A model generated the notes under the pieces. It made no database searches and was not told the DNA's origin. It worked only from the letters and a program-made list of their open reading frames with translations. From a virus, in the IMG/VR virus record IMGVR_UViG_3300012921_000001, positions 1 through 49,982 of that record: a DNA stretch of 49,982 bases. One strand, written 5' to 3'. Positions 9,638-49,982 of this stretch are shown here, piece by piece. The position numbers were made by a program, and so were the translations under genes. Each line of letters begins with the position of its first letter. Position 1 is the first letter of the stretch.

Positions 9638-9658
9638 TTACCTTTTGGAGTTTTACAA

Positions 9659-9865
9659 ATGCCTAAGAAAGTACTGATCGCGCTGCCACCGGCGATGCTT
9701 GAGCAAGTGGATTTCATCGCACAGCACGAGCACCGGACAAGAAGCGATCTGATAAGAGAAGCATTGCGCCGCTACCTGGACAACTTCAGAAAGAACCAGG
9801 GCGCTGCACATTTGGCTATCAGTTCAATCGAAGTAAACGACCCATATAAACCGACACTCTCATGA
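9659..9865 (+). CDS. ribbon-helix-helix (CopG/Arc/MetJ) DNA-binding protein
   Basis: KKVLIALPPAMLEQVDFIAQHEHRTRSDLIREALRRYL has the canonical RHH pattern. TGGAG Shine-Dalgarno upstream. Confidence 0.75.
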   Translation: MPKKVLIALPPAMLEQVDFIAQHEHRTRSDLIREALRRYLDNFRKNQGAAHLAISSIEVNDPYKPTLS

Positions 9866-10509
9866 AGCAGCTGCCTCTGTTCGGTCCAGAAGAACTAAAA
9901 AAGCTGGAAGAACAGAAGCAGGACAAGCCAAAGAAGACCGGTAAGAAAAAGCCTCGCAAGAAAAAGAAGAAGCTTCACAGGAAGCCGGCACCCGTTGTTA
10001 TGCGGTTCTGCAAGCGCTGCCTGTGTCGCATCGACGCGGACAAAATACCGGTGTGCAATGCAGTCTGTGCTTTCTGTTTTCGAGACGATGAAGTCTCTGG
10101 CGGTTTCCTGAAGTGGTTCACGGATCACTTCCACGCGCTGGAGCCGCTAGAGAAAAGCCCTGACCCAGAAAAGCGGGGTCAGGTGAAGGAATTCGGGGAG
10201 CTGGTCTGCCAGTACCAGCAAGCCGACCGGTGCGCCCGCATCGCGATCAAGTATCTCGAAAGCGAGCACAGAGATCGAAAGCAGGCGGTGCTTGCAGCAC
10301 TAGATCGTTTGTCCTTCCCACCGCCGACTAAAAACGTATTCGCTGCATGGAGAGCACGAATTAGACCGCAAATAAAAGCTGCACGAATAAATCTTGGTGA
10401 GCCGGTCATCAACTGGCAGCAAACAAAGTACAGACCACAAGACCAGGAAGACTACAAGCTGCCGACCGTAGACACAAAAAGGAAAAGGAAAAATGCACGG
10501 AAGATGTGA
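9862..10509 (+). CDS. hypothetical protein with a poly-Lys N-terminal tract and a Cys cluster
   Basis: ATGA overlap with the RHH gene. Contains KKTGKKKPRKKKKKLHRK followed by CKRCLCRIDADKIPVCNAVCAFC. Confidence 0.6.
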   Translation: MKQLPLFGPEELKKLEEQKQDKPKKTGKKKPRKKKKKLHRKPAPVVMRFCKRCLCRIDADKIPVCNAVCAFCFRDDEVSGGFLKWFTDHFHALEPLEKSPDPEKRGQVKEFGELVCQYQQADRCARIAIKYLESEHRDRKQAVLAALDRLSFPPPTKNVFAAWRARIRPQIKAARINLGEPVINWQQTKYRPQDQEDYKLPTVDTKRKRKNARKM

Positions 10510-11074
10510 CTTTTGCAGAGAGGAGTTAAACCCGCCCCATGCTCACTATTGCGCCGATGAATACATTGCGAGGCTGGGCAACTCGCAGGACGCTGTGACT
10601 GTCTTCCTGGACGCTCACAAAGAGTTCATGAAAGACCAAACCAGTCAAGCGAACTGGGACAAGTTAGAGAAAGCAATTGCAGCATTGCCTTATTCGGGTG
10701 ACGCGCCCAGGGCGAAGATGTACATGCACAGAGCACAGCTTGCCATCAGGGTTGCAGACGCTGCCTTCTTCCACTACATGGAAGGCGATGCTACACAACT
10801 TGAGGCTGCACTTATTGAGTGGATCGAGTTTCGCTACAAGTGGGATCGGCCGGTCGGACCCGAAGAAGAACTGAGCGAAACGCTTAGACGCTGCCAGAAA
10901 TTTCTCAAGATGAAAGGGCTGTATGGCGACGTAGCGAGAATAAATCGCCCGAAGCTTGCAGGAATGCTGACGACTTGCAGAGACCTTCTGAGCAAGCTCA
11001 CAGCGTTCACCGGTGACCTAATTTCTGAGCGCTTGCAATTAGTGGAGGCGTCGAAAGATGAACAGCTGCCCTGA
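10493..11074 (+). CDS. hypothetical protein (N-terminal CxxC…HxxC)
   Basis: 193-aa ORF overlapping its upstream neighbour by 17 nt. Confidence 0.6.
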   Translation: MHGRCDFCREELNPPHAHYCADEYIARLGNSQDAVTVFLDAHKEFMKDQTSQANWDKLEKAIAALPYSGDAPRAKMYMHRAQLAIRVADAAFFHYMEGDATQLEAALIEWIEFRYKWDRPVGPEEELSETLRRCQKFLKMKGLYGDVARINRPKLAGMLTTCRDLLSKLTAFTGDLISERLQLVEASKDEQLP

Positions 11075-11357
11075 GTGCAATGCAGATCAAAAGTACAAAC
11101 AGCCTGGAGTGCTGGGCGGTACTGAGATCGGTTTCTATTGTGGTGCTGTCTGGGTGCAAAGTAGCTCCAGAACTTCATACGCTCGAAAGGGATGTGACTA
11201 CAGAGCGCCAAAAGGTGCGGTGTTCATGGGCGTTGACCTGGCGAGCGGTCCAGATCGCACAGTCGGCATCGACCCTGACACTGGTTTACCGGTAGACATG
11301 AAGCTCTTCAGCCCAGAGAAGTTGGAAGAGCTGTACAGGAGGCACGCGCTGGAATGA
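11058..11357 (+). CDS. zinc-ribbon hypothetical protein
   Basis: MNSCPECNADQ…FYCGAVW. Overlaps both neighbours. Confidence 0.55.
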   Translation: MNSCPECNADQKYKQPGVLGGTEIGFYCGAVWVQSSSRTSYARKGCDYRAPKGAVFMGVDLASGPDRTVGIDPDTGLPVDMKLFSPEKLEELYRRHALE

Positions 11358-11929
11358 GCGGCTTTGCATTCACCGACTTAGAAACTACCGGGCTCTCTGA
11401 GTCTGATGACCGGATAACGCAGATTGCAGCGATCCGGACAGACGAAAATTTCAAAATCCGAGGCGTTTTCAAAATGCACGTGTACCTGCCGGATGAGATC
11501 GAGCTGAGCGACTACGCCAGAGAAATCACCGGCATCACCAGGGAATCTCTACAGCGTGAACCGCCAGAAGAAATCGTCATTCGAGCTTATCTGGACTTCT
11601 GTTATTCAGATGACCCGCTGGTGTTCGCTGCCTATAACAAGCAGTTCGACATGAGGATGATCATTGCCGCGTGTCACCGCTATCCAGGGATGTATGAGCT
11701 GTTTAAGAAGCGCATCAAGACGCCCGCTTATTGCGTGATGAAGGCGGCAGAAGAGCACCTGCCGGATGTGCCCCGCATTTACCGTGAAGACGGCAAATAT
11801 AGCCAGTACAAACTTGAGCTGGTGGCAAAGCACCTGGGCATCAGGATAAAACCGCACGACGCGCTGGAAGACATTGCAGCGACGTTGAAGATCGCAAAAC
11901 ACATCAGGAGGATCAAAGGTGGACGGTGA
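11354..11929 (+). CDS. DnaQ-like 3'-5' exonuclease (DEDDh family)
   Basis: ExoI FTDLETTGL, ExoII AAYNKQFDMRMI, ExoIII HDALEDIAAT. Confidence 0.85.
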   Translation: MSGFAFTDLETTGLSESDDRITQIAAIRTDENFKIRGVFKMHVYLPDEIELSDYAREITGITRESLQREPPEEIVIRAYLDFCYSDDPLVFAAYNKQFDMRMIIAACHRYPGMYELFKKRIKTPAYCVMKAAEEHLPDVPRIYREDGKYSQYKLELVAKHLGIRIKPHDALEDIAATLKIAKHIRRIKGGR

Positions 11930-37051: not shown

Positions 37052-38814
37052 GATACAACCCCCGCTATTTTGAAAAGCTCATCAAGCTCAGTGCGTGCGA
37101 CCAATTCCGATGATTTCAGAAGCATTGTTTCTTTGAAATCATTGGCGGCAATTTTGTGCAGGTCTTCTAAACTCTTTTCGACCATGCGATTAGCAAGCTG
37201 AATCAGAAAGAGTTCTTGATCAATCTTCGGACCTGCAAGCATGAGCTTCGCACACGTGGATACAGGCACTCTGAAGGCGTTTCTGATGGCTTCCAGGTGT
37301 CCTTTATAGAAGGTCTTCATGTAAGTCCAACCTTCGGCAGCGGGCTTGCCGCTATGCACGCGTTTCATGGTTGACTCAAAGGCTTCTATTTCACGGCTAT
37401 GGCATCGTGAAGCAGCATCCTCAAAGGCAGGCAACATCAAGGCTTTCAACTCAATCAGAGACTCCTCTGAAGCTGCTGCAAAAATGCCATCCGCGACAGC
37501 AGCCGCATCCTTCTTATCCACAGGCTTCTTCTCCTCTTTCTTCGGCTTCTCATCAGCTTCCGGTTCCGGCGCTGCAATGATCTTGCCGTTAGGTGCGTGA
37601 GATGTAGGAATTAACAGGGCATTGCCAATCTCGTCTTCATGCGGCTTCAGGTTACGCTCTGCTCTTGCTTCGTTCGGAGCAAGGATGCCAGCGGTAACAT
37701 CAGCGCGTTGTGACTCGTGTTTCTTGGCTTGGTTAGCCCATTCCAGTTGATCAACGTCATACTCAACAATGAAGTACTTACGCTCAGGGCGCTTCAAGAA
37801 ATCGCGCTCTTTCGCTTGCTGAAAGATGGTCAGAATAGGCGAAGCTGTATCCTCACGGTATTCATCGCCCTGGGTTTCAATGTTGTTATTTGTGCTTCGG
37901 TCGAGCAGCCCTACTTTGTGCTCCTGGACCCCGAAGTATCGGCAGATAGTAGATTCATTGCGCCTTCTCTGCGCATCCATCTCTGCGTCTTTGTTCGTCA
38001 TCAAGTTCATCAAGAAAGGCTTCAATCCCATATCGAGAATGCCGCCAGCGCGATGCTTGTTTTTCAGCCCGCCATTTTTCTTGACGATGTCTTCATAGAT
38101 CTCGTCTTTCTTCTTGATGTCCACCGCTTTATCGGTGATGAAGTAATAGGGCGGCGTTGCATCATTGTGCAAATATCGCTCTGTGAATTCGTCGAAGTCA
38201 CGGCAGAGCTGGATCGCTCTCTGTGCAACCGCACACGTGGAGATACCTACAATTCCTTCCGTCGAAGGTGCAGCGATGTGGTGTACTTCCCACTTCTCAA
38301 GTTCATGCGGTTCGCCACTTCGATCCGTGTACTTGTAAATGAGCCTATCGTCAGCCTTATGTCTGGTGACTTCCATCCTGGACGGATGCAGCGGATTAAG
38401 TGCCACCACGTCACCACGCCTGTTGACCAATTTCTGGTCATAGCTATTGCCGTACATGAAGTATCTGAGCACGCGCATGTAGTCATACTGCGCCCAGGTC
38501 TGTTCATCGTTCGGAGCAACCGAGATGACGTAATAGTTAGGGTGGTTAACTGCCTTCTCGTATCCACCATTCGGCAGACTTCGATACAGGAAGCGCGGCA
38601 AGCTGCTCACAGTGCCTCCTACAAGAATCATGCACCGCCATGCAATTGAGCAGTAATAGACATCTTCTTCCGTCAACTGCTTGCCGGTGATTGGGTTCTT
38701 CTCCCAACCTATGCGCATCATCCCCGGTGGCATCCATGCGCCCGGCTCATTCCAGAGATCCTTCAGCGCGTCAGCCGTAAATGGGTTTAAGTTGTTAATT
38801 GCTCTAGTCAGCAT
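37048..38814 (-). CDS. portal protein, HK97 family, with a Lys/Glu-rich C-terminal extension
   Basis: 588 aa, located between the terminase and protease. The portal-like core contains YDYMRVLRYFMYGNSY. Confidence 0.85.
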   Translation of the reverse strand: MLTRAINNLNPFTADALKDLWNEPGAWMPPGMMRIGWEKNPITGKQLTEEDVYYCSIAWRCMILVGGTVSSLPRFLYRSLPNGGYEKAVNHPNYYVISVAPNDEQTWAQYDYMRVLRYFMYGNSYDQKLVNRRGDVVALNPLHPSRMEVTRHKADDRLIYKYTDRSGEPHELEKWEVHHIAAPSTEGIVGISTCAVAQRAIQLCRDFDEFTERYLHNDATPPYYFITDKAVDIKKKDEIYEDIVKKNGGLKNKHRAGGILDMGLKPFLMNLMTNKDAEMDAQRRRNESTICRYFGVQEHKVGLLDRSTNNNIETQGDEYREDTASPILTIFQQAKERDFLKRPERKYFIVEYDVDQLEWANQAKKHESQRADVTAGILAPNEARAERNLKPHEDEIGNALLIPTSHAPNGKIIAAPEPEADEKPKKEEKKPVDKKDAAAVADGIFAAASEESLIELKALMLPAFEDAASRCHSREIEAFESTMKRVHSGKPAAEGWTYMKTFYKGHLEAIRNAFRVPVSTCAKLMLAGPKIDQELFLIQLANRMVEKSLEDLHKIAANDFKETMLLKSSELVARTELDELFKIAGVVS

Positions 38815-38940
38815 CGTTCAGATACTCTCTGTCGATCAGCAGCGCTACAAAAATCAATGTTAAGCCGCTCAGGGCGACAGCCACCCAAAGAGACTTCATA
38901 CTGATCCCGATCAGTAAAAGAAATATGCCGAAAAGCAGCA
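38804..38940 (-). CDS. possible two-TM microprotein between terminase and portal
   Basis: MLLFGIFLLLIGISMKSLWVAVALSGLTLIFVALLIDREYLNDAD. No clear Shine-Dalgarno. The longer track form overlaps TerL. Confidence 0.3.
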
Positions 38941-38981
38941 TGAGCTGGGCGCTTAGATTTACGAGGAATTTAAAGCAGCGT

Positions 38982-40571
38982 TCAAGAGTCGGGGAAAAAC
39001 GTTGGGTTAAGTTCCTCCTCTTTTCCGCCAGTAAGCTCAGAGATCGCACCTCTTGTCGCCAAAGCCATTGCCACCATTCCGTCAATTTTTTTGTGACTAA
39101 GTTTCTTGTCAAACATCTTGCCATGCTTGTTTTCATTGGTCCTCGCATTCATTGCATTCCAAGTCAAAACCGCGTTGTGTGGGTGGATAAGCCGCCCTTC
39201 AGTAATTCTCAGGAGCACTTCTGATGTGCAGGCGTTCATTGGTCCACATGCTTGAGTCGCTTCTACAAGCTCAATTCCGAGCGCTTCCAGTGATTCGACC
39301 AGGTAGTAGCTGTGGTGCTTGTCGTAGTGGCAGACTTTGATTGGGTTGGTTTTCGCAACGTCTGCAACTTTTTCCGCCAGCACTTTGTAATCGGTCCTTA
39401 TCCCAGGAATTGGGGTAAAGTCACCGGCTTCTGCCCATTCGTCATACGGCACATTGTGCTCATACATGTTTTTCTCAATGCACTTCTCTGGCCCGTAGAA
39501 AAACGGGAAGTACATCGGTATGCCGTCATCATTGATAAGCATGAAACAAAGACAAGTAAGATCGTCTTGATCTGCCAAGTCGATACCCAGATAAAGCGGC
39601 TTGCCAGGGAAGTCTTCAAGCTTGTAGTCGTTTCTGCCACATGCTTCCCACTGAACTTCATCAATAGCTGCGTCAATGTCCTGCACCCACTGATTGCAAT
39701 GAAATTGCCTGAGCTTCCGAAGCCAAGTCTTTTTGCGCCGCGCTTTTATCGCAATTTCTTCAATCGACTGATGGCTAGGTGCAAATGGATAACCGGGGTT
39801 AGCAGCTTTCCACGCTTCGACCGAGAAAGGATCTGCCTTTCGATCAGCTTCAGCAATAAACGAAAAGTAAGTAGGGTGGTGCACATCGCCCTTCAGCACC
39901 ATCTTTGCATACTGATATTCTTCATAAGCACTACTGTGAATGTCATCACCGGCGGTGCCTTGCATAATCAGGAGCGGCTGAGAGCGCGCCCCGAAACCTG
40001 TTTGTAGTGCAGCTTGAAGATCGTCTGTCTTTTGCTCCTGGAATTCGTCCATAACGACGATATGGGGAGAACCGCCCAGCTGCGAGACGGCTTCACTAGA
40101 AACGGGCTGAATAAATCCGTGATTCTTCCGGTGCTCGATGATGCAGGAGCCAGGATAGGCAATCAATCTTTCGGTCAGCCACGGGCTAGCCTGAACCATG
40201 CGCACGCAGATCCGTGTAAGTTTCTTCGCTTTTGCTTCGGTTTGAGCAGAAACATAGTTCTCTGCCTCGTGTTCATTGTCACGAATAAGCGAATACAACA
40301 GCAATGCAGCTGTTGCAGTGGTTTTGGCGTTTTTTCTCGCCATTGTGATGAAGGCAGATCGGAAGCGGCGCAGATTGTCTGCACGCTGCTTCCAGCTCAG
40401 AATCGGTCCATAGATGTTCTCGCGCTGCCACTTCTGAAGAATGAATTGCTTTCCAGCCCATTGACCTTCAATTAGCTTGATGTGGGCCGCACAGAAATCA
40501 ACGAAGCGCTGTTCTTCTTCCGAATCGTACCAGTACAGCTCATCTATTTCCTGGCTTCGGTCCACCCTCAT
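38982..40571 (-). CDS. terL: terminase large subunit
   Basis: WQRENIYGPIL…FITMARKNAKTTATAALLLY (Walker A-like), VVMDEF (Walker B), and a C-terminal nuclease domain. Confidence 0.9.
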   Translation of the reverse strand: MRVDRSQEIDELYWYDSEEEQRFVDFCAAHIKLIEGQWAGKQFILQKWQRENIYGPILSWKQRADNLRRFRSAFITMARKNAKTTATAALLLYSLIRDNEHEAENYVSAQTEAKAKKLTRICVRMVQASPWLTERLIAYPGSCIIEHRKNHGFIQPVSSEAVSQLGGSPHIVVMDEFQEQKTDDLQAALQTGFGARSQPLLIMQGTAGDDIHSSAYEEYQYAKMVLKGDVHHPTYFSFIAEADRKADPFSVEAWKAANPGYPFAPSHQSIEEIAIKARRKKTWLRKLRQFHCNQWVQDIDAAIDEVQWEACGRNDYKLEDFPGKPLYLGIDLADQDDLTCLCFMLINDDGIPMYFPFFYGPEKCIEKNMYEHNVPYDEWAEAGDFTPIPGIRTDYKVLAEKVADVAKTNPIKVCHYDKHHSYYLVESLEALGIELVEATQACGPMNACTSEVLLRITEGRLIHPHNAVLTWNAMNARTNENKHGKMFDKKLSHKKIDGMVAMALATRGAISELTGGKEEELNPTFFPDS

Positions 40572-41067
40572 AATAGTTGTCCCATTGATCTTTAGATGAA
40601 GTCACCGGCTGACCTGGTGGTGGCGGGCTTTCTCCACTTCCAGGCGGTTTCTCTTTCACTAAAGCAGTGATACCAAGTTTGGTGGCTAGATCAGATGCAG
40701 CTTTCCACTCTTTTTGAGCAGCAGAAATCTCAGCAGCCTTCTTAAATACACGGTTAGACATGCGCGTGCCTTTTCCGTTCTTGTTGATTTCCCGTTCAAA
40801 CTCAATCGCTCTGCCCGAATGCGAGCAATAAGCGGCAAAAAGTTGAAGCTTTCCAGGATGAAGGTCTAAAAGGGGTAATTCCCGGTTCCACACCTTAACA
40901 GCCTCAGACGCAAGCCAGTCGGGCGGTTCAGGGGTCTTGTCCGTCTGGGGTGGTGGCGTAGTTGGTGCAGGGTTTTCGGGGGGTTCCGTTTTTTTGTGAT
41001 TGCCTTTCTTTGAAATGCGGTCGTGAAAGACCACCGCCGAATCTTCGGCTTTTTTCTGTCTTGGCAT
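40540..41067 (-). CDS. terS: terminase small subunit (P27-family-like)
   Basis: PDWLASEAVKVWNRELPLLD…LQLFAAYCSHSGRAIEFEREI pattern. AGGAAGGA Shine-Dalgarno upstream. Overlaps terL. Confidence 0.7.
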   Translation of the reverse strand: MPRQKKAEDSAVVFHDRISKKGNHKKTEPPENPAPTTPPPQTDKTPEPPDWLASEAVKVWNRELPLLDLHPGKLQLFAAYCSHSGRAIEFEREINKNGKGTRMSNRVFKKAAEISAAQKEWKAASDLATKLGITALVKEKPPGSGESPPPPGQPVTSSKDQWDNYYEGGPKPGNR

Positions 41068-41266
41068 ATTCCTTCCTAGTTGAAACCGCTGCTGGTGTCA
41101 CTCCCCGTAGATTAAGCCCCGAAACGCGCATCTACGCGGGGGGCTGCGACGCGGGGTCGTTTGCGAAAAGTCCTGAAGGATTTTACCCACCCCCCTGGGG
41201 TGGCAACAGAGAACCGCATTAGAAGCCGCTCTAAGCCTTTCTATTGCCACCAGGGATAGAGGCGCG

Positions 41267-41620
41267 TTATTTACCCTTCTTTGTCTTATTCTCGTCTACA
41301 GGGACAGGAGAAGGGCTTGTGATAGCCGATTCCACAGGTACTACCTCAGTAGTAGTGAAGCCTTGTCCATCATCCTTCTTGAGTAGCATCTGTCCTTCAC
41401 CTGCTTCTACTGCACTGCTATTGGGTTCGTGCTCAGCAGGGCCTGCGAGTAGGAGCACAGGCCTGGTGATGTGCTTCTCTTTGACTACGTAGTCTGAATC
41501 GGGCTTCTCATAGGCTTCTGCTATGGTCTGCTCTATGGGGTCGGATGGGTTCACATCCAGAGTGATGATCTCGACATAGGTGCGAGTGCGTTGAAATAGG
41601 CGCCTTTCTAATGTAGCCAT
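41267..41620 (-). CDS. hypothetical protein
   Basis: 117-aa ORF between the HNH gene and the terminase. Confidence 0.5.
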   Translation of the reverse strand: MATLERRLFQRTRTYVEIITLDVNPSDPIEQTIAEAYEKPDSDYVVKEKHITRPVLLLAGPAEHEPNSSAVEAGEGQMLLKKDDGQGFTTTEVVPVESAITSPSPVPVDENKTKKGK

Positions 41621-41672
41621 GGTGTGCTAAGTCCTTGTGTGTATGTGCACCTATTGTGGTGCAGTGGTGTAA

Positions 41673-42089
41673 TTACTCTTGGTCTAGTGCTTCTGCACTA
41701 GCGGCTTCTGCTGCGTCATGGGCTATGAGTTCAGCCTCTGCTGCACGCTCTGCTTCTGCCTCTGCTATGGCTTCTGCTACATGGTCAACCTCTATGGGTT
41801 CTGAGGCAGCTTCCTGTGATAAAGCTTGGCTGTCTTCTTGCTTTGGGGCTTCTTCTGCCGCCACCTCCACTGGTGCAGCAGCAGGCTCTTCAGCAGGGGT
41901 AAACCCTGGTGCTGCCTGTGGTCTACTCATACTGATGAGATGTGCCGACTGTGGGTAGCGTGCCACTTCACTAACGCCTTCACCTGATGCTGCATTGGCT
42001 AGGGCTAGGGCTTCTTCTTCGCTGTAATCGCCTTTGATTACAACCTGTTCTTTAATGGTGCTTTCTCTGGAATAAATTCGTTCAATCAT
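41673..42089 (-). CDS. acidic Ala/Glu-rich hypothetical protein
   Basis: The start overlaps the HNH gene stop by 8 nt. The antisense 107-aa Ala/Ser ORF is judged a mirror artefact. Confidence 0.55.
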   Translation of the reverse strand: MIERIYSRESTIKEQVVIKGDYSEEEALALANAASGEGVSEVARYPQSAHLISMSRPQAAPGFTPAEEPAAAPVEVAAEEAPKQEDSQALSQEAASEPIEVDHVAEAIAEAEAERAAEAELIAHDAAEAASAEALDQE

Positions 42090-42936
42090 GGATGACGTTA
42101 TCCTCTCTGGATGGTTCGTAGTGTTGCCACCAGTCTTCTACTAGGTAGGACCAATCGAAGGATTGATCACGTTTTTCGTCCTGCCTAATTCGCTCCATGC
42201 AGAGTGCGGCAGGTGTTTCTAGTACGAAGACCTTGGCACCATACCTAGCCCTGAATTCATCACGTGTGGCTTTCTTGGTGCCTGTGATAATGATCCATGC
42301 AGTAAGAGTACTTTCTTCTTTATCCAATGCTGCATAAATCGCGTCTCTGGCTTCCCAGCCGTATTTCAGGAGTTCGCGCGGTTTACGGTGAGTTTCAATT
42401 CCACAGAGTGCAGACATCAAAGCGTCGAAGTCCAAAACCAAATGATGTGGCTTTCGATTGTTTTTAACGAAGGTGGATTTACCGGAACCAGGGGGACCAC
42501 ATACGAGGAAGACAGTTCTGCCTGGTTTGCTACCTGTCCAGCCGTCTTCTTTCCTGGTCTTCGATGTGTGGCAGTCGTGGCAGAGAGATTGAATATTCTT
42601 GCCGTCTCTTCCATCGCTACCGCCGAAGCTCATCGGGATCATGTGGTCTACTTCGTTTGCAATTCGGCCACAGGGGTTTTGTTTTTGGTGGTGAAGGCAG
42701 GACTTCTCACACTGGCAGAAAGGGCTTGCGTTAGGGAATGCTTCGGATGGAGTGCTGAGTTGTCCAGGTCGAATTACGTCACGCCACACTTTTGAGTTAT
42801 AGAGTTTTTTGCTTTCCGGATCTCTTTCGCGTTTATCGCGTCGTTTGTTGTCGGTTTTTTTGCAGCGGTCACAGTAGCGTTTGCCAAGTTCGATGACCGC
42901 ATAGCAACCAGGTCCATTGCATTGTTTTTTTGGCAT
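42082..42936 (-). CDS. HNH endonuclease fused to a P-loop NTPase/kinase-like domain
   Basis: The N-terminal half has a CxxC zinc ribbon, VDHMIPMSFGG and NIQSLCHDCHTSKT. The C-terminal half has Walker A VCGPPGSGKST, LVLDFD, and a kinase-like lid with Arg residues. Confidence 0.8.
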   Translation of the reverse strand: MPKKQCNGPGCYAVIELGKRYCDRCKKTDNKRRDKRERDPESKKLYNSKVWRDVIRPGQLSTPSEAFPNASPFCQCEKSCLHHQKQNPCGRIANEVDHMIPMSFGGSDGRDGKNIQSLCHDCHTSKTRKEDGWTGSKPGRTVFLVCGPPGSGKSTFVKNNRKPHHLVLDFDALMSALCGIETHRKPRELLKYGWEARDAIYAALDKEESTLTAWIIITGTKKATRDEFRARYGAKVFVLETPAALCMERIRQDEKRDQSFDWSYLVEDWWQHYEPSREDNVIHD

Positions 42937-43016
42937 GGGTTATCCTGTTGGATATATAAATGTATGAGTTTTGGATTAGACAGCTGGCACCGTCTGTGAT
43001 GCTTCTAAAAATGATT

Positions 43017-43050
43017 GCCAGGTGTGATTAGACCTGGCTAGCTATTTTTT
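43017..43050. terminator. hairpin with flanking A and T runs (weak bidirectional terminator candidate)
   Basis: GCCAGGT-8 nt-ACCTGGC, then TAGCTATTTTTT on the plus strand and AATCATTTTT on the minus strand. The U-tracts are offset 5-6 nt from the stem. Confidence 0.35.
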
Positions 43051-43144
43051 AAGCTCAGGGCGGCTGTGAGAGGCTGGAAAAGTGGAGCCGCGGGTTAGCC
43101 GCGGGCGGCACTTCTTTCTCACTGAGCTGACTGCATAAATCAAT

Positions 43145-43237
43145 AGACTATTAGATCTTAGTCAGTCAGTCTCAGTCTTAAGACTAGTCTGTCTTAGACT
43201 AAGACTACGTCTTAGACTAAGACTAGACTGGGAGTCT
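43145..43237. promoter_or_regulatory. dense AGACT/AGTCT pentamer array with overlapping palindromes (operator/activator-site candidate)
   Basis: I count 11 pentamers in 93 bp. Palindromes: AGTCTTAAGACT (43174..43185), AGACTAGTCT (43181..43190), and GTCTTAG-A-CTAAGAC twice (43191..43205 and 43209..43223). Confidence 0.6.
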
Positions 43238-43308
43238 GAGGGGTCAAGTGGAAATCTGAATTGTGTGGTATCGTTCCCGGTGATTGGTCCGCACAACTTG
43301 GAGCCCGT

Positions 43309-43950
43309 ATGACTGATGTATATCGGTTCAATATTGGCATAGCGAAACGCACACTGACGTGTTGGCTGTGCCCAATGAAGTGTTCTTCTGGCAGTGAAGT
43401 GGCCTGGGATGAAGAGTCGAAGAAAAAGCATGACTCCATTCGCATTGCTTGCCTTCCATGTGCCAAGAAACAAGTAGCCGCTGGTAAAGGTGAGTTCAGG
43501 CCAAAAACAGAAACGCCCGCACGGAGTGCAGGCGCTTCAGGATTGGTCGCATCCACTGGAGGCAACAATGAAATTATATCTCTACTTACTGAGATCAGAG
43601 ATCTTCACAAGTCAAACAATGCGATGTTGAAAAAGTTGATGCTCGAGCGTGGACTAGAAATCGAAGAGCAAAGTGATTTTAGTCCACCTGAACAATTTCC
43701 CGATCTAGCGGTCTTTGGAGATACGAAACCGACACATGAGTACTCCACGTACTTAGATTGGGTAAATGAGAACCATGAAGAACTGGCAAGGTTTCTTGGT
43801 GAGCACTGCAAGTCATTCAGCTATGAAGACAGCACTGCAAACATCGGCATCACTTCTCAATTCGTTTCATATGCAGAGAAGAACAGAAAGCTGCTCAGCT
43901 CCTACTTTCCTGCAAAGACACAAGTGAACTTCGTACCTGTTAACCGTTGA
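43309..43950 (+). CDS. zinc-ribbon protein of unknown function, the only plus-strand gene in the right arm
   Basis: ATG 43309 lies 5 nt after GGAG (the track start 43261 is TTG). The N-terminus is CWLCPMKC…CLPCAKK. Its 3' end overlaps the convergent gene by 11 nt. Confidence 0.6.
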   Translation: MTDVYRFNIGIAKRTLTCWLCPMKCSSGSEVAWDEESKKKHDSIRIACLPCAKKQVAAGKGEFRPKTETPARSAGASGLVASTGGNNEIISLLTEIRDLHKSNNAMLKKLMLERGLEIEEQSDFSPPEQFPDLAVFGDTKPTHEYSTYLDWVNENHEELARFLGEHCKSFSYEDSTANIGITSQFVSYAEKNRKLLSSYFPAKTQVNFVPVNR

Positions 43951-44113
43951 GAAACGAGCAAAACAAGGCAAAGCCGGCTCCACCGCATATGGTGGCAACT
44001 GTCAGGCCAAAAATGCTGCCCAGAATAAAGCCTTTCATAAGTGCACTCTGGGCTGCTTTGCGGTCGAAGTAGAGCTTATCCTCTGCTGCAATCAGGTCGG
44101 CTATCTCAGTCAT
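43940..44113 (-). CDS. small protein with a C-terminal TM helix (57 aa)
   Basis: ATG 44113 (MTEIADLI…) has an ATGACTGA overlap with the upstream stop and GAGGAAAG Shine-Dalgarno. TM helix GFILGSIFGLTVATICGGAGFALF. Confidence 0.5.
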   Translation of the reverse strand: MTEIADLIAAEDKLYFDRKAAQSALMKGFILGSIFGLTVATICGGAGFALFCSFLNG

Positions 44114-44441
44114 CACTTCTTTCCTCATCAAGATCGGGCAGTGGAACAGTTTTGCCTGCCAGTTCGTGAGTGCAATCGCCACAGAACTGGATCATGCCAT
44201 CAGTTACAAACAGGTGACAGATCTCTGGCCCACCGTCCTCAGCTCTAAATGGAGTTGTATGCAGCAGACTTGCCTGGAAGGTTGGCTTTTCCATGTTGCC
44301 GTTAAACGTCCAGCGTGGACCAGGATAAGAGCATTTGATTGTGTAGACATGCCCGTGTTTACAGGCTGGGCAGAAGAATAGATAGCCTTCATGGTCATGG
44401 CAGTCACCGTGCTGATGTGACTGAGGCAATAGGGTTCTCAT
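44106..44441 (-). CDS. His/Cys-rich zinc-binding protein (DUF6527-like by recall)
   Basis: FFCPACKHGH…RWTFNGNMEKPTFQASL…CHLFVTDGMIQFCGDCTHELAGKTVPL is a pattern I associate with this phage-borne family. Confidence 0.6.
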   Translation of the reverse strand: MRTLLPQSHQHGDCHDHEGYLFFCPACKHGHVYTIKCSYPGPRWTFNGNMEKPTFQASLLHTTPFRAEDGGPEICHLFVTDGMIQFCGDCTHELAGKTVPLPDLDEERSDD

Positions 44442-44662
44442 TCTTGATCCTCCAGCCTTCCATACCTAGCGAATTCACGCTGCCACTCGGGGACAGTCTC
44501 ACCTCTTAAGTCTGCAAGCTTGCACTGATACCAGGCACACATCCTAGTTTTTCTCCAGGCTTCTCTCTCCCAGCGCTTCATGTGTCGATAAAACGCCTGA
44601 GCCAAGCCAATGAGAAAGCTGTTGATTAAGCAAACAAAGAAGAAAGCCCATTCAAGTGTCAT
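44438..44662 (-). CDS. small N-terminal-TM protein (74 aa)
   Basis: ATG 44662 (MTLEWAFFFVCLINSFLIGLAQAF…) has an ATGA overlap with the upstream microprotein. Confidence 0.5.
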   Translation of the reverse strand: MTLEWAFFFVCLINSFLIGLAQAFYRHMKRWEREAWRKTRMCAWYQCKLADLRGETVPEWQREFARYGRLEDQE

Positions 44663-44790
44663 CGCTTGTTTTGCTCCTCTACAGCCATCTCCTGCCACTT
44701 CTTAGCCTCGTCGTGCATTTCCTGGTTGTATTTCCAGAGAATGCAGACAAGGATGAAGAGTGACAGCTCTAAAAGGTGATGACCGGTCAT
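44659..44790 (-). CDS. single-TM microprotein (43 aa), below the ORF-track cutoff
   Basis: My own translation: MTGHHLLELSLFILVCILWKYNQEMHDEAKKWQEMAVEEQNKR. ATGA overlaps at both ends. Confidence 0.4.
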   Translation of the reverse strand: MTGHHLLELSLFILVCILWKYNQEMHDEAKKWQEMAVEEQNKR

Positions 44791-44975
44791 GAGTATTGGA
44801 TTTCTCCCTTTGTGGTTAAGACAGAAGCTCTATCAAGGACGGTAACCCTCCACCGCCCTGGCTCCACTTCATTCAGCGCAGTCAGAGCAGCTTCTAGTTT
44901 GTCCATAGCTTCGGCTTCTGCCTTCAGATACTCGGGTGTGTGCCTGGCGGCATATTGGTCAACAAATTTGCTCAT
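44787..44975 (-). CDS. hypothetical small protein
   Basis: 62-aa ORF with an ATGA overlap. Confidence 0.5.
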   Translation of the reverse strand: MSKFVDQYAARHTPEYLKAEAEAMDKLEAALTALNEVEPGRWRVTVLDRASVLTTKGEIQYS

Positions 44976-45253
44976 TTGGTGGCATCCTTCACAGCTTCCT
45001 TCTGTTCTGTCGGCTTGACTGTGTTGAGCTTGAGCTTCTGAATGACCTTCAGCCCTTGCTCTCTGCCCTTGTAATAGGCTCTCCAGCCAAGCACGCCTAG
45101 GACAGGACCGGCAACGAGACCGACACCGACATAGACCGGGAATGTGGCGATCTTTTCCACCTTGAGCTTAAATGCAGCCTTGTCGAAGGCGTGAGCCTCC
45201 TGGGCGTTCAAGAATGCCAACAGTATTGCCACAGCGGTTAGACGCTTGATCAT
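44972..45253 (-). CDS. signal-peptide plus TM small protein (93 aa)
   Basis: ATG 45253 follows GAAGGTG. Signal peptide MIKRLTAVAILLAFLNAQEAHA-FD, then TM helix FPVYVGVGLVAGPVLGVLGW. It is the first gene after the 45362..45390 terminator. Confidence 0.55.
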   Translation of the reverse strand: MIKRLTAVAILLAFLNAQEAHAFDKAAFKLKVEKIATFPVYVGVGLVAGPVLGVLGWRAYYKGREQGLKVIQKLKLNTVKPTEQKEAVKDATK

Positions 45254-45361
45254 TTTGCACCTTCTTTCGGGCACCGGATACGCCACCAATAATAAGAGAG
45301 CAGAGAAGGTGGATATGATCTGCAGTCGGTTTAATGCCACCAGATAGAGTGCCTGTAAGGG

Positions 45362-45390
45362 CAAAAAAAAACCGCCCCGTTAGAGGCGGT
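45362..45390 (-). terminator. rho-independent terminator
   Basis: On the minus strand: ACCGCC-8 nt loop-GGCGGT followed by 8 T. It lies 12 nt after the stop of 45403..45666. Confidence 0.8.
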
Positions 45391-45402
45391 TTCTTCGGTT
45401 TC

Positions 45403-45666
45403 TCAAGGTGATTGCCTGAAATGCAATCGAGCGGAAATCAGACCATGTATCTGTTGTGCAATTGGTTCAAGCAGGGTGAAGTAGCACTTTTCATGAGTTT
45501 TATCATCGTATTGCACCACGTGTGGAAAGTTGGCTGATATGGCATTGAACAGCTCTGTAAACTGCTCTTGAGTTACCAAAACTTCCGTTAGTAGCTCACC
45601 CCGCTTAGGCTCTGCACTCAGAAGCCGCACATCAGGACACCCTGACACTTTCAATAAGCGATTCAC
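45403..45666 (-). CDS. hypothetical protein
   Basis: 87 aa, with a GTGA overlap to the upstream gene. Confidence 0.5.
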   Translation of the reverse strand: MNRLLKVSGCPDVRLLSAEPKRGELLTEVLVTQEQFTELFNAISANFPHVVQYDDKTHEKCYFTLLEPIAQQIHGLISARLHFRQSP

Positions 45667-46055
45667 GGTTTCTTCACCTCCACAGCTTCACCGTTAACGA
45701 CTTTCAAACCATGACCGACAAACATAGAATGCCTGACCTTTGCAGTGTTGAAAATACACTCCATCCGGTGGCAGTCGATGCCTTCATACACTGCGAACTG
45801 CTGTCCAGGGTCATTAATACCCCAGCGGTATGTCTCATCATCTGCTTCCAGAATCGGATCAAATTTGCTTTCGTTGACGTTCGCTGGAGACGGCAGCAGA
45901 TCGCGAAAGATGAAATCATCTCGATAGCCACCACGCCCAACGAAGACATACAGACCAGTTGCAGCAGCAGGCACCCATTTGCTGAAGATGGTGCCTTCAG
46001 TCATGTTCATTAGTTCTTCTCGTGTCACTAACTTCACGGTTTCGCTTGCCTCCAA
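45663..46055 (-). CDS. hypothetical protein
   Basis: 130-aa track ORF. The start is uncertain (TTG 46055, GTG 46037, or an internal ATG). Confidence 0.5.
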   Translation of the reverse strand: MEASETVKLVTREELMNMTEGTIFSKWVPAAATGLYVFVGRGGYRDDFIFRDLLPSPANVNESKFDPILEADDETYRWGINDPGQQFAVYEGIDCHRMECIFNTAKVRHSMFVGHGLKVVNGEAVEVKKP

Positions 46056-46555
46056 AACTCAGGATCGTAAGGGTCACCAGCACCTATGACTTCGACAAAC
46101 TTACAAGCAGGATTCTCTGTCGGCTCAGAGCCCATCCAATCTGCCCATTGTTTCACGGCTTTCCGATCAATCTCTGGGCACGTGCTCATAACGATGCTGT
46201 ACTTGCTTTTGGTGCCCATCGGCACAGGCTCTTCATGGAAGCCCAGACCAATGCTGTGAGCAAGATTCAGCAGACTGTTTACGAAGTTGAGATAAAAGCT
46301 GTGCTTCTTCTCTTCAGATAGTGCTTCTTCATACTCAAGCGGAAAAGTCTGCCGCCACTGTCGCTGAAGCTCCAGCAAAAGAGCTGTGTGATTGTGACGC
46401 CTGGGCGGATAGTGCACCCAGAAGATTTTGCCCGCTTTGCGAGCTGCAATCATCTCTTTGATCATTTGCTCCTGCCATGGAAACAGCTTGAACAGCACCG
46501 GATCGTCATCCTTCAGCGTGAGGTAGTTCTCTATAAATTTCTGGTCGATGTTCAC
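46034..46555 (-). CDS. hypothetical protein
   Basis: GTG 46555 lies 7 nt after AAGGGGG and overlaps the upstream TGA. The track start is 46585. Confidence 0.55.
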   Translation of the reverse strand: MNIDQKFIENYLTLKDDDPVLFKLFPWQEQMIKEMIAARKAGKIFWVHYPPRRHNHTALLLELQRQWRQTFPLEYEEALSEEKKHSFYLNFVNSLLNLAHSIGLGFHEEPVPMGTKSKYSIVMSTCPEIDRKAVKQWADWMGSEPTENPACKFVEVIGAGDPYDPEFWRQAKP

Positions 46556-46998
46556 GCCCGCACCCCCTTGAGTCGATCTGCACACTTCCTAATCTCAGTG
46601 CAAATGTCTTCGCGTTGTGTTTTGTTGTAGTCATGACAGTCAGGTCGCCACCCCATAACGAAGTGACAGAGCCTTTCTATGTCATCTGCATCATCAATCT
46701 TGTAGAAGCTATTTGCCACACCGTAGATGCCCTGGTGTCTTGATTGCCAGGAATGCAGATCGGTTGCTTCATCACAGGCGCCGCATGAATCATTTGAGAA
46801 TTCTGCATAGATGATTTCTTTATCGACTTCATCAAAGAGAACCAGCAGAAGCTCTGCATAGGCAACGTAGCTTAGATAGACAGACCCCAGATGCACCATG
46901 CCGAACTTCTCAGGCTCACTAGCAAAGTTGCTCGTGTACTTGTTGGCTTCACTCACGTCACGATCTGAAAGCGTTGCAAAATATCTGTGTGCGCTCAC
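46552..46998 (-). CDS. hypothetical protein
   Basis: GTG start 7 nt after GGAGG, with a GTGA overlap. Confidence 0.55.
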   Translation of the reverse strand: MSAHRYFATLSDRDVSEANKYTSNFASEPEKFGMVHLGSVYLSYVAYAELLLVLFDEVDKEIIYAEFSNDSCGACDEATDLHSWQSRHQGIYGVANSFYKIDDADDIERLCHFVMGWRPDCHDYNKTQREDICTEIRKCADRLKGVRA

Positions 46999-47333
46999 CT
47001 TCTCACCTCCAGGAGCTGTGTAATTCTCTCTTCTTCTTCGGCCGGTACTTCCCTGATGTATTCAGACTTCACGGCTAAACTCGGGAACACTTCCGGCTTC
47101 TTGTACGGGCGTTTTGGTTCCGCCTTCTTGCAGCTGCTGAAGTGATTGGCATACTTGCCCCTGGGATCACCGTCACCAAGTTCAACTTCAGAAGCGGTCA
47201 CGGCGTACCAGGTCTTTCGAGCAAGCCGGAACCAGATGATCGGCACGCCACAAGACTTGCAGTTAACTGGCTTTCTTCTAGCGTTTCTCTCCATCCCTCC
47301 TGGTGAAAGTTCACTCAATTCCCTCCCTCCCAC
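46995..47333 (-). CDS. zinc-ribbon hypothetical protein
   Basis: CKSCGVPIIWF…HFSSCKK. The start is uncertain (47333 GTG, 47318 TTG, or 47294 ATG) within a GGGAGGGAGGG run. Confidence 0.5.
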   Translation of the reverse strand: MGGRELSELSPGGMERNARRKPVNCKSCGVPIIWFRLARKTWYAVTASEVELGDGDPRGKYANHFSSCKKAEPKRPYKKPEVFPSLAVKSEYIREVPAEEEERITQLLEVRR

Positions 47334-47605
47334 TTGATTGCACTGGTGAGATAGAGACTAATCTCGTTCTTCTCTATGCGCCCCGTCATCGCTTCAAAGG
47401 TTGCGATGCGAACGTTTGTTTTGTTGGTTAGGATACCGATCTTGGTAGCTTTACCCTTATTCGCATCTTTGACAAGTCTTTGCAAAAATGGCACAGCATC
47501 CTGCTGCGGAAAGCGAACGATAAGATCCTCCAACCCTTTCGACTTTCTGACAGTGCAGTCTATAAATGCACTACTCCGATCAACTCTCAATCTGCATTTG
47601 ATCAC
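47315..47605 (-). CDS. hypothetical protein
   Basis: 96-aa ORF with an ATGA overlap. Confidence 0.5.
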   Translation of the reverse strand: MIKCRLRVDRSSAFIDCTVRKSKGLEDLIVRFPQQDAVPFLQRLVKDANKGKATKIGILTNKTNVRIATFEAMTGRIEKNEISLYLTSAIKWEGGN

Positions 47606-47853
47606 GATGCCACCGCCTTCGCTGGGCGGATTTTCGCCATCAACTTAGAAACGTCAGAATCATTTACACCATAGGTTTTTATCGCATAACTGTGATGCTT
47701 TCCACGCGCTTGTGCGCAAAGCTTGCCACCACCAGGAAGTAACCACAGCTCATGTAATGAGTTCTTATGCAGTGCTGTTGCGTCTCTGAGAGCCTTCTCT
47801 AAATTGCGATTGCCAATCAATCTTTCGGCTTCTTTTCGTGTGATTGGGATCAT
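47602..47853 (-). CDS. hypothetical protein
   Basis: 83-aa ORF with an ATGA overlap. Confidence 0.5.
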   Translation of the reverse strand: MIPITRKEAERLIGNRNLEKALRDATALHKNSLHELWLLPGGGKLCAQARGKHHSYAIKTYGVNDSDVSKLMAKIRPAKAVAS

Positions 47854-48284
47854 GACGCTTGCCCTCTCCGCTCATCGTCACCAGCGCACCACTCGCAGTG
47901 CTCACCATCTGCCTGATCTCCCCACCACAAAGGCACTGATCTCGTTTCAATTGGAGTCACGCTGACAGTACCAGGATCGTTCTCCCAAGCAACTTTATGT
48001 CGTTTGCAAAGTTCAATCTCTTGCGTGTTGCCGCTTTTTTCCACAGTGCGATAGAGAGAAGTCTTTGTGCTTGTCTCACTGTAGACACCCTGAATTACAA
48101 GATTGCCGCGGACGATGTTGAAGCCGATCACTTCGTACAAAGGCAATTCACTTTTAACGTCTGTTGATCTCAACTCTTTTTCAATAGCGCATTCAATCGG
48201 CAATATCTCATCATCTGGATACCGCACGCCAATTGCGCCCATAGCGTCAAGATGCTCCAGGCAGCTAAGTAGCTTTTCCTTCAT
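47850..48284 (-). CDS. hypothetical protein
   Basis: 144-aa ORF with AGGGGGA Shine-Dalgarno 5 nt upstream. Confidence 0.55.
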   Translation of the reverse strand: MKEKLLSCLEHLDAMGAIGVRYPDDEILPIECAIEKELRSTDVKSELPLYEVIGFNIVRGNLVIQGVYSETSTKTSLYRTVEKSGNTQEIELCKRHKVAWENDPGTVSVTPIETRSVPLWWGDQADGEHCEWCAGDDERRGQAS

Positions 48285-48879: not shown

Positions 48880-49782
48880 TTACCCTGTGGAGTAAAGTTT
48901 GTGCCCCTGTCCTGGAGCTGGGCTAATTATACGATGGGGGTACTCACTTTTACTCCCCAGTAAAATCTCTTCAACCCCTTCCATGGCGCCCCGCACCGGT
49001 TCTAGGTCTAGCCGCGCATAGACTGCCGTTGAGCGCTGATCGCGGTGCCCAAGCGCCTTGCCGATGACATAAGGTGAAGCACCTTTTATCGCAAGGTAGC
49101 TGCCGACCGTGCGGCGAAGGTCGTGAATGCGTAAGTTCTCGATACCTGCACGGCTCAAGACTCGTGCCCATGCACGCTTAGGCTCTCTCAGGTGTCCACC
49201 GTACCTGCCGGGAAAGACGTACTGGCTGGTGCTCAGAGCCTTTCTCGCGAAAAGAATCTGAGCAGCAGACTTGCAGAGTGGCAGTGTGTGGAGGTCGTCA
49301 TTCTTCGCATCGAAACGCCATATCAGCAGGTCCAGGTCTATTTCCTTCCATTGCATCGCCAGGACGTTGCCGCGCCGGGCCCCTGTTAAAAGGCATATAA
49401 GGAAAAAGTCTCTCAAGGTCGGTTCTTCTTTCATCAGAGAATCAAAGAAAGCCGCCAGCTCACCAGGCATCAGAAACCGTTCACGGGGCTTGATACTGAA
49501 CCGCTCCACACCAATACAGGGGTTGCTGTCGATATAGCCGCGCTTGATGCCCCAGCCGAAGATTGCCGCCAGCTGGTTGACCGCCCTGGTGGCTGAAGAC
49601 TTGCTGGCTGCGGCCAGGTCGTCTACCCAGTCCTGAACTTCCCGCTTTGTGATGTTGGCAATGTCCTTGCCGGTCCACTGATGGCTGTGGGCCGACCAAA
49701 AGTAGTGGACATTTTCAGGGCAGCGTGTTCTGACCATGGCGTGCTTCGTGTAATAGAGCTGATAGAGCTGATCTACTTGCAT
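48880..49782 (-). CDS. int: tyrosine recombinase / phage integrase
   Basis: LTGARRG (Arg I), RIHDLRRT (His-x-x-Arg), LGHRD (His), TAVYARL (Tyr nucleophile). Adjacent to attR. Confidence 0.92.
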   Translation of the reverse strand: MQVDQLYQLYYTKHAMVRTRCPENVHYFWSAHSHQWTGKDIANITKREVQDWVDDLAAASKSSATRAVNQLAAIFGWGIKRGYIDSNPCIGVERFSIKPRERFLMPGELAAFFDSLMKEEPTLRDFFLICLLTGARRGNVLAMQWKEIDLDLLIWRFDAKNDDLHTLPLCKSAAQILFARKALSTSQYVFPGRYGGHLREPKRAWARVLSRAGIENLRIHDLRRTVGSYLAIKGASPYVIGKALGHRDQRSTAVYARLDLEPVRGAMEGVEEILLGSKSEYPHRIISPAPGQGHKLYSTG

Positions 49783-49888: not shown

Positions 49889-49924
49889 CGAAAGTGTGAC
49901 CCCAGATCACGCGAAAGCGTGACC
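49889..49924 (+). repeat. two direct 13-bp repeats CGAAAG(T/C)GTGACC spaced 23 bp apart, next to the att core (arm-type site candidates)
   Basis: Copies at 49889..49901 and 49912..49924. GGTCAC, the reverse complement of GTGACC, also occurs inside the 47-bp core. The palindrome TCACGC-GAAA-GCGTGA lies at 49907..49922. Confidence 0.45.
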
Positions 49925-49935
49925 AGGCGGGGCTT

Positions 49936-49982
49936 TTCAATGGCATTGAAGAGGTCACCGGTTCGACCCCGGTACGCTCCAA
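49936..49982 (+). repeat. attR: second perfect copy of the 47-bp tRNA-Ala 3' segment
   Basis: Identical to 1..47. The sequence upstream (…gcgtgaccaggcggggctt) cannot form a tRNA 5' half, so this copy is an att duplicate rather than a gene. Confidence 0.85.

Follow-up and report, generated by a model that had tools for sequence, protein, structure and literature searches.

A dense AGACT/AGTCT repeat array beside a zinc-ribbon gene in a temperate Melainabacteria phage: a candidate cognate operator within an exchangeable cassette

Introduction

The phage genome analysed here (hereafter the window, a whole contig of 49,982 bp) contains a 93-bp stretch, in the gap between two groups of genes, in which the pentamer AGACT or its complement AGTCT is repeated many times in both orientations. 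What is such an array for, which protein, if any, reads it, and why is it found at this point of the genome? I approached these questions by asking how exceptional the array is, what surrounds it, and what changes with it in related phages.

Results

The array and its chance level

AGACT starts at seven positions of the array (43145, 43181, 43196, 43202, 43214, 43220 and 43225) and AGTCT at four (43168, 43174, 43186 and 43233). This is the count that the sequence-only reading of this DNA had reported, 11 copies in 93 bp against an expectation of about 0.2. Over the 49,982 bp of the window there are 118 copies, a mean of 0.22 per 93 bp, and the next-densest 93-bp stretch has three. As a chance model, 300 first-order Markov simulations of the window were generated; the maximum per 93 bp was 2 in 76 runs, 3 in 205 and 4 in 19, while the Poisson probability of at least 11 copies in 93 bp is ∼3e-16. 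A motif count over the whole window found no second cluster. A motif equally common in host DNA would argue against a dedicated role, as the sequence-only reading had pointed out; in a 33-kb sample of host-side DNA, AGACT/AGTCT occurs 1.1 times per kb and at most twice per 93 bp. The same reading had drawn attention to a related pair at 1283–1301, which loses its interest here: its three copies per 93 bp equal the modal chance maximum of the simulations.

When the shorter 4-mer cores (AGAC/GTCT) are counted, there are 13 in the array, spaced 4–9 bp apart and in mixed orientation (the core-to-core spacings listed are 6, 6, 6, 4, 5, 6, 7, 5, 6 and 5 bp). All four palindromes reported earlier, including the tandem pair, were located, and a further one was found (Table 1).

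Arrays with some resemblance to this one are present in two unrelated uncultivated phages of IMG/VR, L002 (4317–4402) and L007 (5100–5200), as GTCT/AGTCT-rich stretches around a GC hairpin, with 6–7 copies per 93 bp. They were reached through a chance 15-mer match (an exact 15-mer scan of IMG/VR gave nine loci, judged to be chance matches), and the ORFs that adjoin them have no Pfam matches.

The phage, its host and the gene order

The window begins and ends with a 47-bp direct repeat (1–47 and 49936–49982), which corresponds to the 3′ portion of tRNA-Ala(GGC). In 11 Obscuribacterales/Melainabacteria MAGs this att core is found beside a DUF547 gene, and a near-identical phage (L020) is integrated at that tRNA-Ala/DUF547 site. 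Together, these observations identify a temperate Melainabacteria phage that integrates at tRNA-Ala and, since the window is a whole contig bounded by the att core, a complete one. Nearly all of the ∼50 phage proteins compared to Pfam and PHROGs are orphans. A distant blastn search of INPHARED found no relatives among GenBank phages, and a literature search found no characterised phage regulatory elements for Obscuribacterales/Melainabacteria.

Table 1. Position and strand of the features of the window discussed in the text.
Feature	Position	Strand	Remarks
DnaB-like helicase and exonuclease module	7997–11929		
RHH_1 (CopG-type) gene	9659–9865		E = 1.5e-8
terL	38982–40571	-	
terS	40540–41067	-	
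HNH endonuclease-AAA_33 P-loop fusion gene	42082–42936	-	Opens the packaging/structural operon
Inverted repeat GGCACC-N6-GATGCT	42986–43003		Constant region just outside the cassette; read from the sequences
Exchangeable cassette	43012–44054		1,043 bp; array and zinc-ribbon gene inside; diverged homologous allele in L021 and L020
Hairpin resembling a bidirectional intrinsic terminator	43017–43038		7-bp stem; A5 at 43007–43011, T6 at 43045–43050
G-rich box GGGCGG...GGCTGGAAAAGTGG and CCGCGG hairpin	43058–43109		Hairpin at 43088–43104
AT-rich conserved left flank (CTGCATAAATCAATAGACTATTAGATCTTAGTC)	43121–43163	.	
Further palindrome AATAGACTATT	43142–43152		
AGACT/AGTCT array	43145–43237	.	11 pentamers, 13 AGAC/GTCT cores, mixed orientation; mostly 5–6 bp spacing; overlapping palindromes of 10–15 bp
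Palindrome AGTCTTAAGACT	43174–43185		
Palindrome AGACTAGTCT	43181–43190		
Palindrome GTCTTAGACTAAGAC, two copies	43191–43205 and 43209–43223		Exact 17-nt direct repeat, 18 bp apart
Conserved right flank	43229–43308	+	Holds GGGTCAAG, TGgTATCGT and SD
Extended -10-like TGgTATCGT	43266–43274	+	TG at 43266–43267, hexamer at 43269–43274
SD GGAG	43300–43303	+	Before ATG 43309
Zinc-ribbon gene	43309–43950	+	213 aa; lone plus-strand gene of the region
BubE/DUF6527 gene	44106–44441	-	Just beyond the cassette
Integrase gene	48880–49782	-	
tRNA-Ala(GGC)	49914–49981		

On one side of the array lies the minus-strand operon for packaging and structure, in which the HNH-AAA_33 fusion gene is followed by two orphan genes, terS, terL, the portal gene and the remaining structural genes. 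On the integrase side are small orphan genes, including the BubE/DUF6527 gene, all on the minus strand. The gene map confirms that the array is placed between the HNH/terminase operon and the lone plus-strand gene, as had been read from the sequence, in a gap of 372 bp between the HNH gene and the plus-strand gene at 43309.

Of 5.8 billion protein clusters, a word-indexed search retrieved only ∼10 for the HNH-AAA_33 protein, whose AAA_33 part is kinase-like. The PHROG that it matches best is labelled ‘terminase small subunit’; a separate Terminase_4 terS gene follows it in the operon.

An exchangeable cassette with three array types

Related phages were reached via the HNH-AAA protein and an alignment of the zinc-ribbon protein. 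A genome collection scanned with the HNH protein gave no match, and IMG/VR, when scanned with the HNH and zinc-ribbon proteins, with a pattern of the constant region and with the right flank that is conserved, returned at most one truncated locus. The comparisons below cover parts of the related genomes, which in the case of L021 amount to ∼14 kb.

In L021, the terS, terL and integrase proteins are 100% identical to those of the window, BubE is 99% and HNH 98% identical, and the DNA is 96.5% identical over window positions 37575–43011 and 44055–45398. Between these two blocks lies the cassette, for which both L021 and L020, 96–100% identical to the window outside it, have another allele in common. 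In L021, the zinc-ribbon protein encoded there is only 30% identical to that of the window, and the array, at the same position, consists of GGATC/CGATC/GGATGG. A third allele is found in L035, with an array of TTGCAA/TGCGCC/CGCGCG and a distinct N-terminal zinc ribbon. Homology of L035 with the window returns at the right boundary, at 44055, and the same left boundary is a branch point. L035 and L011 were assembled from one sample, and L035 overlaps the end of L011 by a 30-nt k-mer. The contigs L011 and L014 both end at the left boundary of the cassette, 58–60 bp upstream of the HNH gene. Since these ends coincide with the cassette boundary, and given the 30-nt overlap with L035, they are explained by a branch in the assembly graph rather than by a physical end of the DNA.

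The latter point bears on the possibility that the array is a packaging recognition site of the cosB or pac kind, bound by the terminase, or by the zinc-ribbon protein as an accessory specificity factor. It would then be comparable to the R sites of lambda cosB or the hexamer clusters of P1 pac; the array is directly upstream of the HNH-terS-terL operon, and a GGGCGG-rich box near it has a superficial likeness to the lambda cohesive end. A cos/terminase site was at first favoured because of where L011 and L014 end, and was dropped once L021 and L035 showed these ends to be a cassette boundary. A site of this kind would be expected to co-vary with terS, whereas L021 combines the terminase proteins of the window with an unrelated array, and L020 and L021 have one array in common while their terS proteins are just 64% identical (terL, 74%). 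I regard a packaging site as quite improbable.

On the basis of their motifs, the arrays can be assigned to three types, labeled A (AGACT; the window, L013 and L018/L017), B (GGAT-type; L021 and L020) and C (TTGCAA/TGCGCC; L035). The HNH proteins of L013 and L018/L017 are 62–70% identical to that of the window, and their arrays are nonetheless of the AGACT type. Among the type-A arrays of the window, L013 and L018 the motif is kept, but copy number, order and length (74–85 bp) differ. Each motif set is enriched only in its own array, with 11 (A), 10–11 (B) and 13 (C) copies per 100 bp, and reaches at most five elsewhere.

Comparing the zinc-ribbon proteins domain by domain, the identity of the N-terminal domain sorts with array type (A-A 61–70%, B-B 66%, A-B 32–39%, and 20–28% for C against the others). 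That of the C-terminal domain does not: it is 44% between L018 (A) and L020 (B) and 51% between L020 (B) and L035 (C), but 14% between the window and L018, both of type A. In the sequences compared, array type tracks the N-terminal domain of the zinc-ribbon protein, and not its C-terminal domain, the terminase, the HNH protein or the integrase. This co-inheritance could be due to physical linkage alone, as the array and the N-terminal domain are adjacent.

Other genes do not follow the array. L020 and L021 have the BubE/DUF6527 gene at 99% conservation; in L035 a 150-aa gene takes its place, and the sequenced part of L018 lacks it. The 45403–45666 gene is present both in L035, of type C, and in the window, of type A, and the accessory genes specific to the window are absent from the 4.6 kb beside the type-A cassette of L034; none accompanies type A in L018/L034. 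Exact-sequence look-ups of the BubE and terS proteins of the window yielded no new cassette alleles. The array motif changes with the zinc-ribbon gene, alone among the genes tested, in near-identical as well as related phages, which supports the earlier view of the array as a multi-site binding platform for a protein. The narrower role that the sequence-only reading gave it, as the genetic switch or late-gene control of this phage, is a candidate role, and no late promoter was identified in a consensus scan. The RHH proteins and the HTH-like product of 407–679, which had been put forward as possible binders, receive little support; the 407–679 product is 97% identical in L021 despite its different array.

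The array might still be bound by a factor acting in trans from a distant gene, with the zinc-ribbon gene as a linked passenger. The CopG-type RHH protein of this phage would be a candidate. Proteins of this class typically bind repeats that are short and contiguous. RHH proteins such as omega of pSM19035 bind arrays of short repeats in mixed orientation (PMC9499535), and the locus of the RHH gene is outside the ∼14 kb of L021 that were compared. Across the three cassette types, however, it is only the adjacent gene, in its N-terminal domain, that always changes with the array, and a distant factor would need to be swapped in step every time; the conservation of the 407–679 product illustrates the same difficulty. 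This makes a distant factor unlikely.

The adjacent gene encodes a zinc-ribbon protein with few relatives

The alignment of homologues places the conserved start of the gene at ATG 43309 (MTD.YRFN). The public gene call (P0001, 191 aa) starts at an internal ATG, 43375, and lacks the first CxxC knuckle. The product begins with a 4-Cys zinc ribbon, followed by a disordered linker and then a long helix; next come the invariant GL...DFSP motif and a C-terminal domain that is alpha/beta and variable. Residues C18, C21, C48 and C51, which form two CxxC knuckles, are invariant in 6/6 homologues, including the divergent type C; the label ‘zinc ribbon’ given to this gene from the sequence therefore holds, and metal binding is predicted.

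Sequence searches place the protein in a very small family. There is no Pfam or PHROG match at E ≤ 0.01, and none below E = 0.7 in a profile search of the PDB. Among 1.84 billion representatives, an exhaustive search with a profile identified only five family members or clusters, and one weak match (E = 1e-7) to part of a 5,532-aa protein, while a word-indexed protein search with the single sequence found only itself. An AlphaFold model, obtained with a three-sequence alignment, is of moderate confidence (mean pLDDT 67) and, apart from disordered linkers, consists of a small N-terminal domain rich in beta structure, a helix of 27 residues and a C-terminal domain of alpha/beta type; the beta-strands around the cysteines are modeled at pLDDT 71–84. 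Foldseek found no match to this model in the PDB below E = 0.05, and no recognisable DNA-binding family emerged from Pfam, PHROG, PDB profile or Foldseek searches. The N-terminal domain is net positive in types A and B (in the window, 12 K+R vs 7 D+E), but not net basic in type C (8 K+R vs 10 D+E).

The C-terminal domain of the model has a weak likeness to DnaA domain I (Foldseek E = 0.07–0.12, probability 0.97), and this raises the question of whether the array is a replication origin with iterons, the zinc-ribbon protein its initiator, and the two exchanged as a replicon-specificity module. Initiator-iteron pairs co-vary, as the array and the zinc-ribbon gene do, and origins of this type combine an adjacent initiator gene and an AT-rich unwinding element with direct repeats of ∼17–22 bp that are in helical phase. 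An AT-rich box (∼25 bp) does flank the array directly, and the type-B array is GATC-rich. The repeats themselves, however, are of 5–6 bp, irregularly spaced by 4–9 bp and in mixed orientation; the array lies where the packaging operon begins, a long way from the DnaB-like helicase/exonuclease module; and the DnaA-like matches are not significant, being equalled by ribosomal KH-like proteins. An origin is thus distinctly unlikely.

The array is framed by conserved flanks

The last 79 bp of the right flank (43230–43308) are kept at exactly this length and are 90–95% identical among three type-A cassettes, and the left flank has a core in which these three do not differ at all (100% identity). 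At its third codon positions, the adjacent gene reaches only 53% identity, which implies strong purifying selection on the flanks of the array. A ATAGATAA-like box is found at the matching position in types B and C. The AT-rich box matches the IHF consensus only in part, and no IHF site is proposed here.

These flanks also bear on another account of the array, namely that it is low-complexity DNA with no function, produced by replication slippage at a hot spot of recombination. The arrangement of copies does turn over quickly between relatives, and the region is a recurrent recombination boundary. Yet in every relative an array is found at the same position, built from the motif specific to its cassette type, and the flanks that frame it are more conserved than the neighbouring coding sequence. 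I consider this account very improbable.

Within the right flank, TGnTAnnnT is kept in 5/5 type-A and type-B sequences, ∼35 bp upstream of the start codon. The only positions of TGgTATCGT that are invariant across the two types are the TG, T-12, A-11 and T-7, which are those of an extended -10 element; type C has no equivalent at the same distance. I infer from this pattern that TGgTATCGT is the extended -10 promoter of the zinc-ribbon gene, and if this is correct the array spans about -45 to -135. A consensus scan identified no full sigma-70-type promoter, and no leftward or late promoter. A sigma-54 promoter around TGGCAC (42985–42990) was also considered and rejected, as the GG-N10-GC spacing is absent and the orientation is wrong.

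On the other side of the array, the terminator-like hairpin is located just inside the left edge of the cassette and precedes the HNH start codon by ∼70–100 bp. In every relative, an inverted repeat between an A-run and a T-run is found there, with differing sequence. Between this hairpin and the array, each of the three cassette types has a GGGCGG...GGCGGAA(A)TT box (L012, L013, L018, L020 and L035); its likeness to the cohesive-end sequence of lambda is superficial only. In the part of the constant region that borders the cassette, the two arms of the inverted repeat at 42986–43003 change together in the relatives (GGCATC/GATGCC in L021, GCACC/GGTGC in L012, TTGCA/TGCAA in L014). This suggests a conserved hairpin or a dimer-binding site, GGCAYC-N6-GRTGCC, in the leader of the late operon. 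The constant region on the HNH side of the cassette also contains a conserved TTTTGGATT.

As a further possibility, the array could act as a structured leader or antisense RNA, in which complementary repeats set the specificity; immunity is RNA-based in phages P4 (CI RNA/seqA-C) and P1/P7 (c4). For both strands of the array, folding is much more favourable than in shuffled controls (z = -4.7 and -7.1), each relative is able to form long hairpins from its own motif, and the terminator-like hairpin is 100–200 nt to the left. Good folding is however the automatic result of inverted copies of one motif, and type-A arrays conserve that motif but not the positions of the pairs, several of the palindromes having loops of just 0–1 nt. 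For the conserved flank, the covariation term of RNAalifold was positive, which is unfavourable, and pairs were broken, and in Rfam 15 no family reached its gathering score (mir-4427 scored 24 bits against a threshold of 86, RmaA 22 against 57). An RNA element of this kind seems to me a clearly unlikely explanation. An RNA hairpin in the conserved right flank was also considered and discarded, as it shows no covariation and substitutions in L018 break its pairs.

Discussion

A proposed cognate operator cassette

The cassette has the integrase-side accessory operon on one side and the HNH-terminase-structural operon on the other. The explanation that I favour, judging from the sequence comparisons and at a probability of about 0.5, is that the array is a cognate multi-site operator, that is, an array of binding sites for the protein encoded by the adjacent zinc-ribbon gene, and that the two form a self-contained specificity cassette of 1 kb. 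The basic N-terminal zinc-ribbon domain would read AGAC/GTCT half-sites of 4–5 bp, and the long helix and C-terminal domain would serve for oligomerisation. Many subunits could then coat the ∼90 bp cooperatively, at about -45 to -135 of the putative extended -10 promoter of their own gene. Such coating may autoregulate the zinc-ribbon gene, and may gate transcription across the gap between the integrase-side and late operons. Two forms of gating can be envisaged: an immunity-like block that reinforces the adjacent terminator-like hairpin, or activation of a putative leftward promoter. In the allelic cassettes, the N-terminal domain and the array motif have changed together, which would give rise to versions in different phage lineages that do not cross-react. 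An immunity-like role would account for the presence of several alleles in one sample, and hence for the break in the assembly graph at this point.

It is tempting to go further, and to see here a new immunity-like module of hetero-specificity, in which a family of zinc-ribbon proteins polymerises on arrays of 5–6 bp repeats and acts as gatekeeper of the packaging/structural operon, with diversifying selection maintaining at least three motif ‘languages’ within single Melainabacteria phage populations. I offer this extended version only tentatively, and consider it rather doubtful.

Comparison with known systems

By analogy, the array would work most like the heptad arrays (parS/operators) bound by omega, the ParB-type RHH repressor of pSM19035, which binds contiguous 7-bp heptads cooperatively, with one dimer per repeat (PMC9499535). 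At least four contiguous heptads are needed there, and sites differ from one another in the number and orientation of their copies (PMC9499535). The likeness lies in the many copies of a very short motif, head-to-tail and head-to-head, upstream of promoters. The unit of the present array is however 5–6 bp, with a spacing of 4–9 bp and not of contiguous 7-bp repeats, and the linked protein is a zinc ribbon in the model, with no RHH match in Pfam. Pfam and PHROG scans found no ParA partner, and this phage integrates.

There is also a likeness to the specificity modules of lambdoid phages, namely cI and its operators, Q-qut-tR′, and the Nu1-cosB pair as it differs between lambda and phage 21. In those modules, as here, a protein and its cis sites are exchanged as a mosaic unit between near-identical phages, giving alleles that do not cross-react, although DNA binding and the lack of cross-reaction are predictions in the present case. 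In the Q module, the regulator gene is immediately upstream of the late promoter and co-oriented with it, and a terminator separates that promoter from the late genes. The cassette resembles this Q-pR′-tR′ arrangement in that a terminator-like hairpin marks its end, immediately ahead of the late genes, but differs in that the zinc-ribbon gene is divergent from the late operon and that no leftward promoter was found in the consensus scan. Nor was a pause site or an early operon identified beside the gene. Lambdoid operators, moreover, number two or three and are 17 bp long, against ∼13 short cores here, and the protein family is unrelated. On this comparison, the array belongs to neither the omega nor the lambdoid group.

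Two further systems share features with it. The met-boxes of MetJ are tandem 8-bp AGACGTCT repeats; their AGAC/GTCT half-sites are those of the array and are likewise repeated in tandem, and the cooperative reading established for MetJ is what is proposed here. The array nevertheless contains no AGACGTCT octamer, the closest being AGACTACGTCT, its spacing is irregular, and the linked zinc-ribbon protein has no MetJ-like or RHH domain. The late activators Ogr, Delta and B of P2-like phages bind a single TGT-N12-ACA per promoter. Like them, the zinc-ribbon protein is a phage protein with four cysteines, predicted to bind zinc, and is encoded beside late genes that it may control. It is on the other hand three times larger, with extra domains, its putative target is an array and not a single site, and it has no Pfam or PHROG match at E ≤ 0.01 that would place it in the Ogr_Delta family. 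No sequence relationship to Ogr/Delta, Q or cI was found.

A cognate regulator with a repeat operator in a swappable cassette is thus known in kind; what is new is the protein family, in a host lineage whose phages are essentially unstudied. On present evidence, the locus represents a candidate operator-regulator pair, which as such is unsurprising. If confirmed, it would add a new family of DNA-binding proteins together with its recognition code, and would give a first view of gene regulation in temperate Obscuribacterales/Melainabacteria phages. The three natural alleles (AGACT, GGAT-type and TTGCAA/GCGC-type), in otherwise isogenic backgrounds, amount to a ready-made specificity-swap experiment. 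In addition, since the cassette breaks metagenome assemblies at a fixed point, it provides a practical marker for strain-level phage diversity.

Further variable segments and a related prophage

The cassette is not the only segment in which the window differs from L021 and L020. Others are 45398–46464, 46568–46993 and 47129–48282, which hold integrase-side accessory genes, and 100–384; the first early gene (115–414) encodes a product that is 36% identical in L021. The existence of several such segments indicates that this phage group is mosaic at several hot spots. Lastly, in another Melainabacteria MAG (JAVLKG010000003.1, ∼997–1000 kb; L025), an integrase 68% identical to that of the window is encoded at the same tRNA-Ala site. 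This locus is probably a further related prophage, and possibly carries a fourth allele of the cassette.
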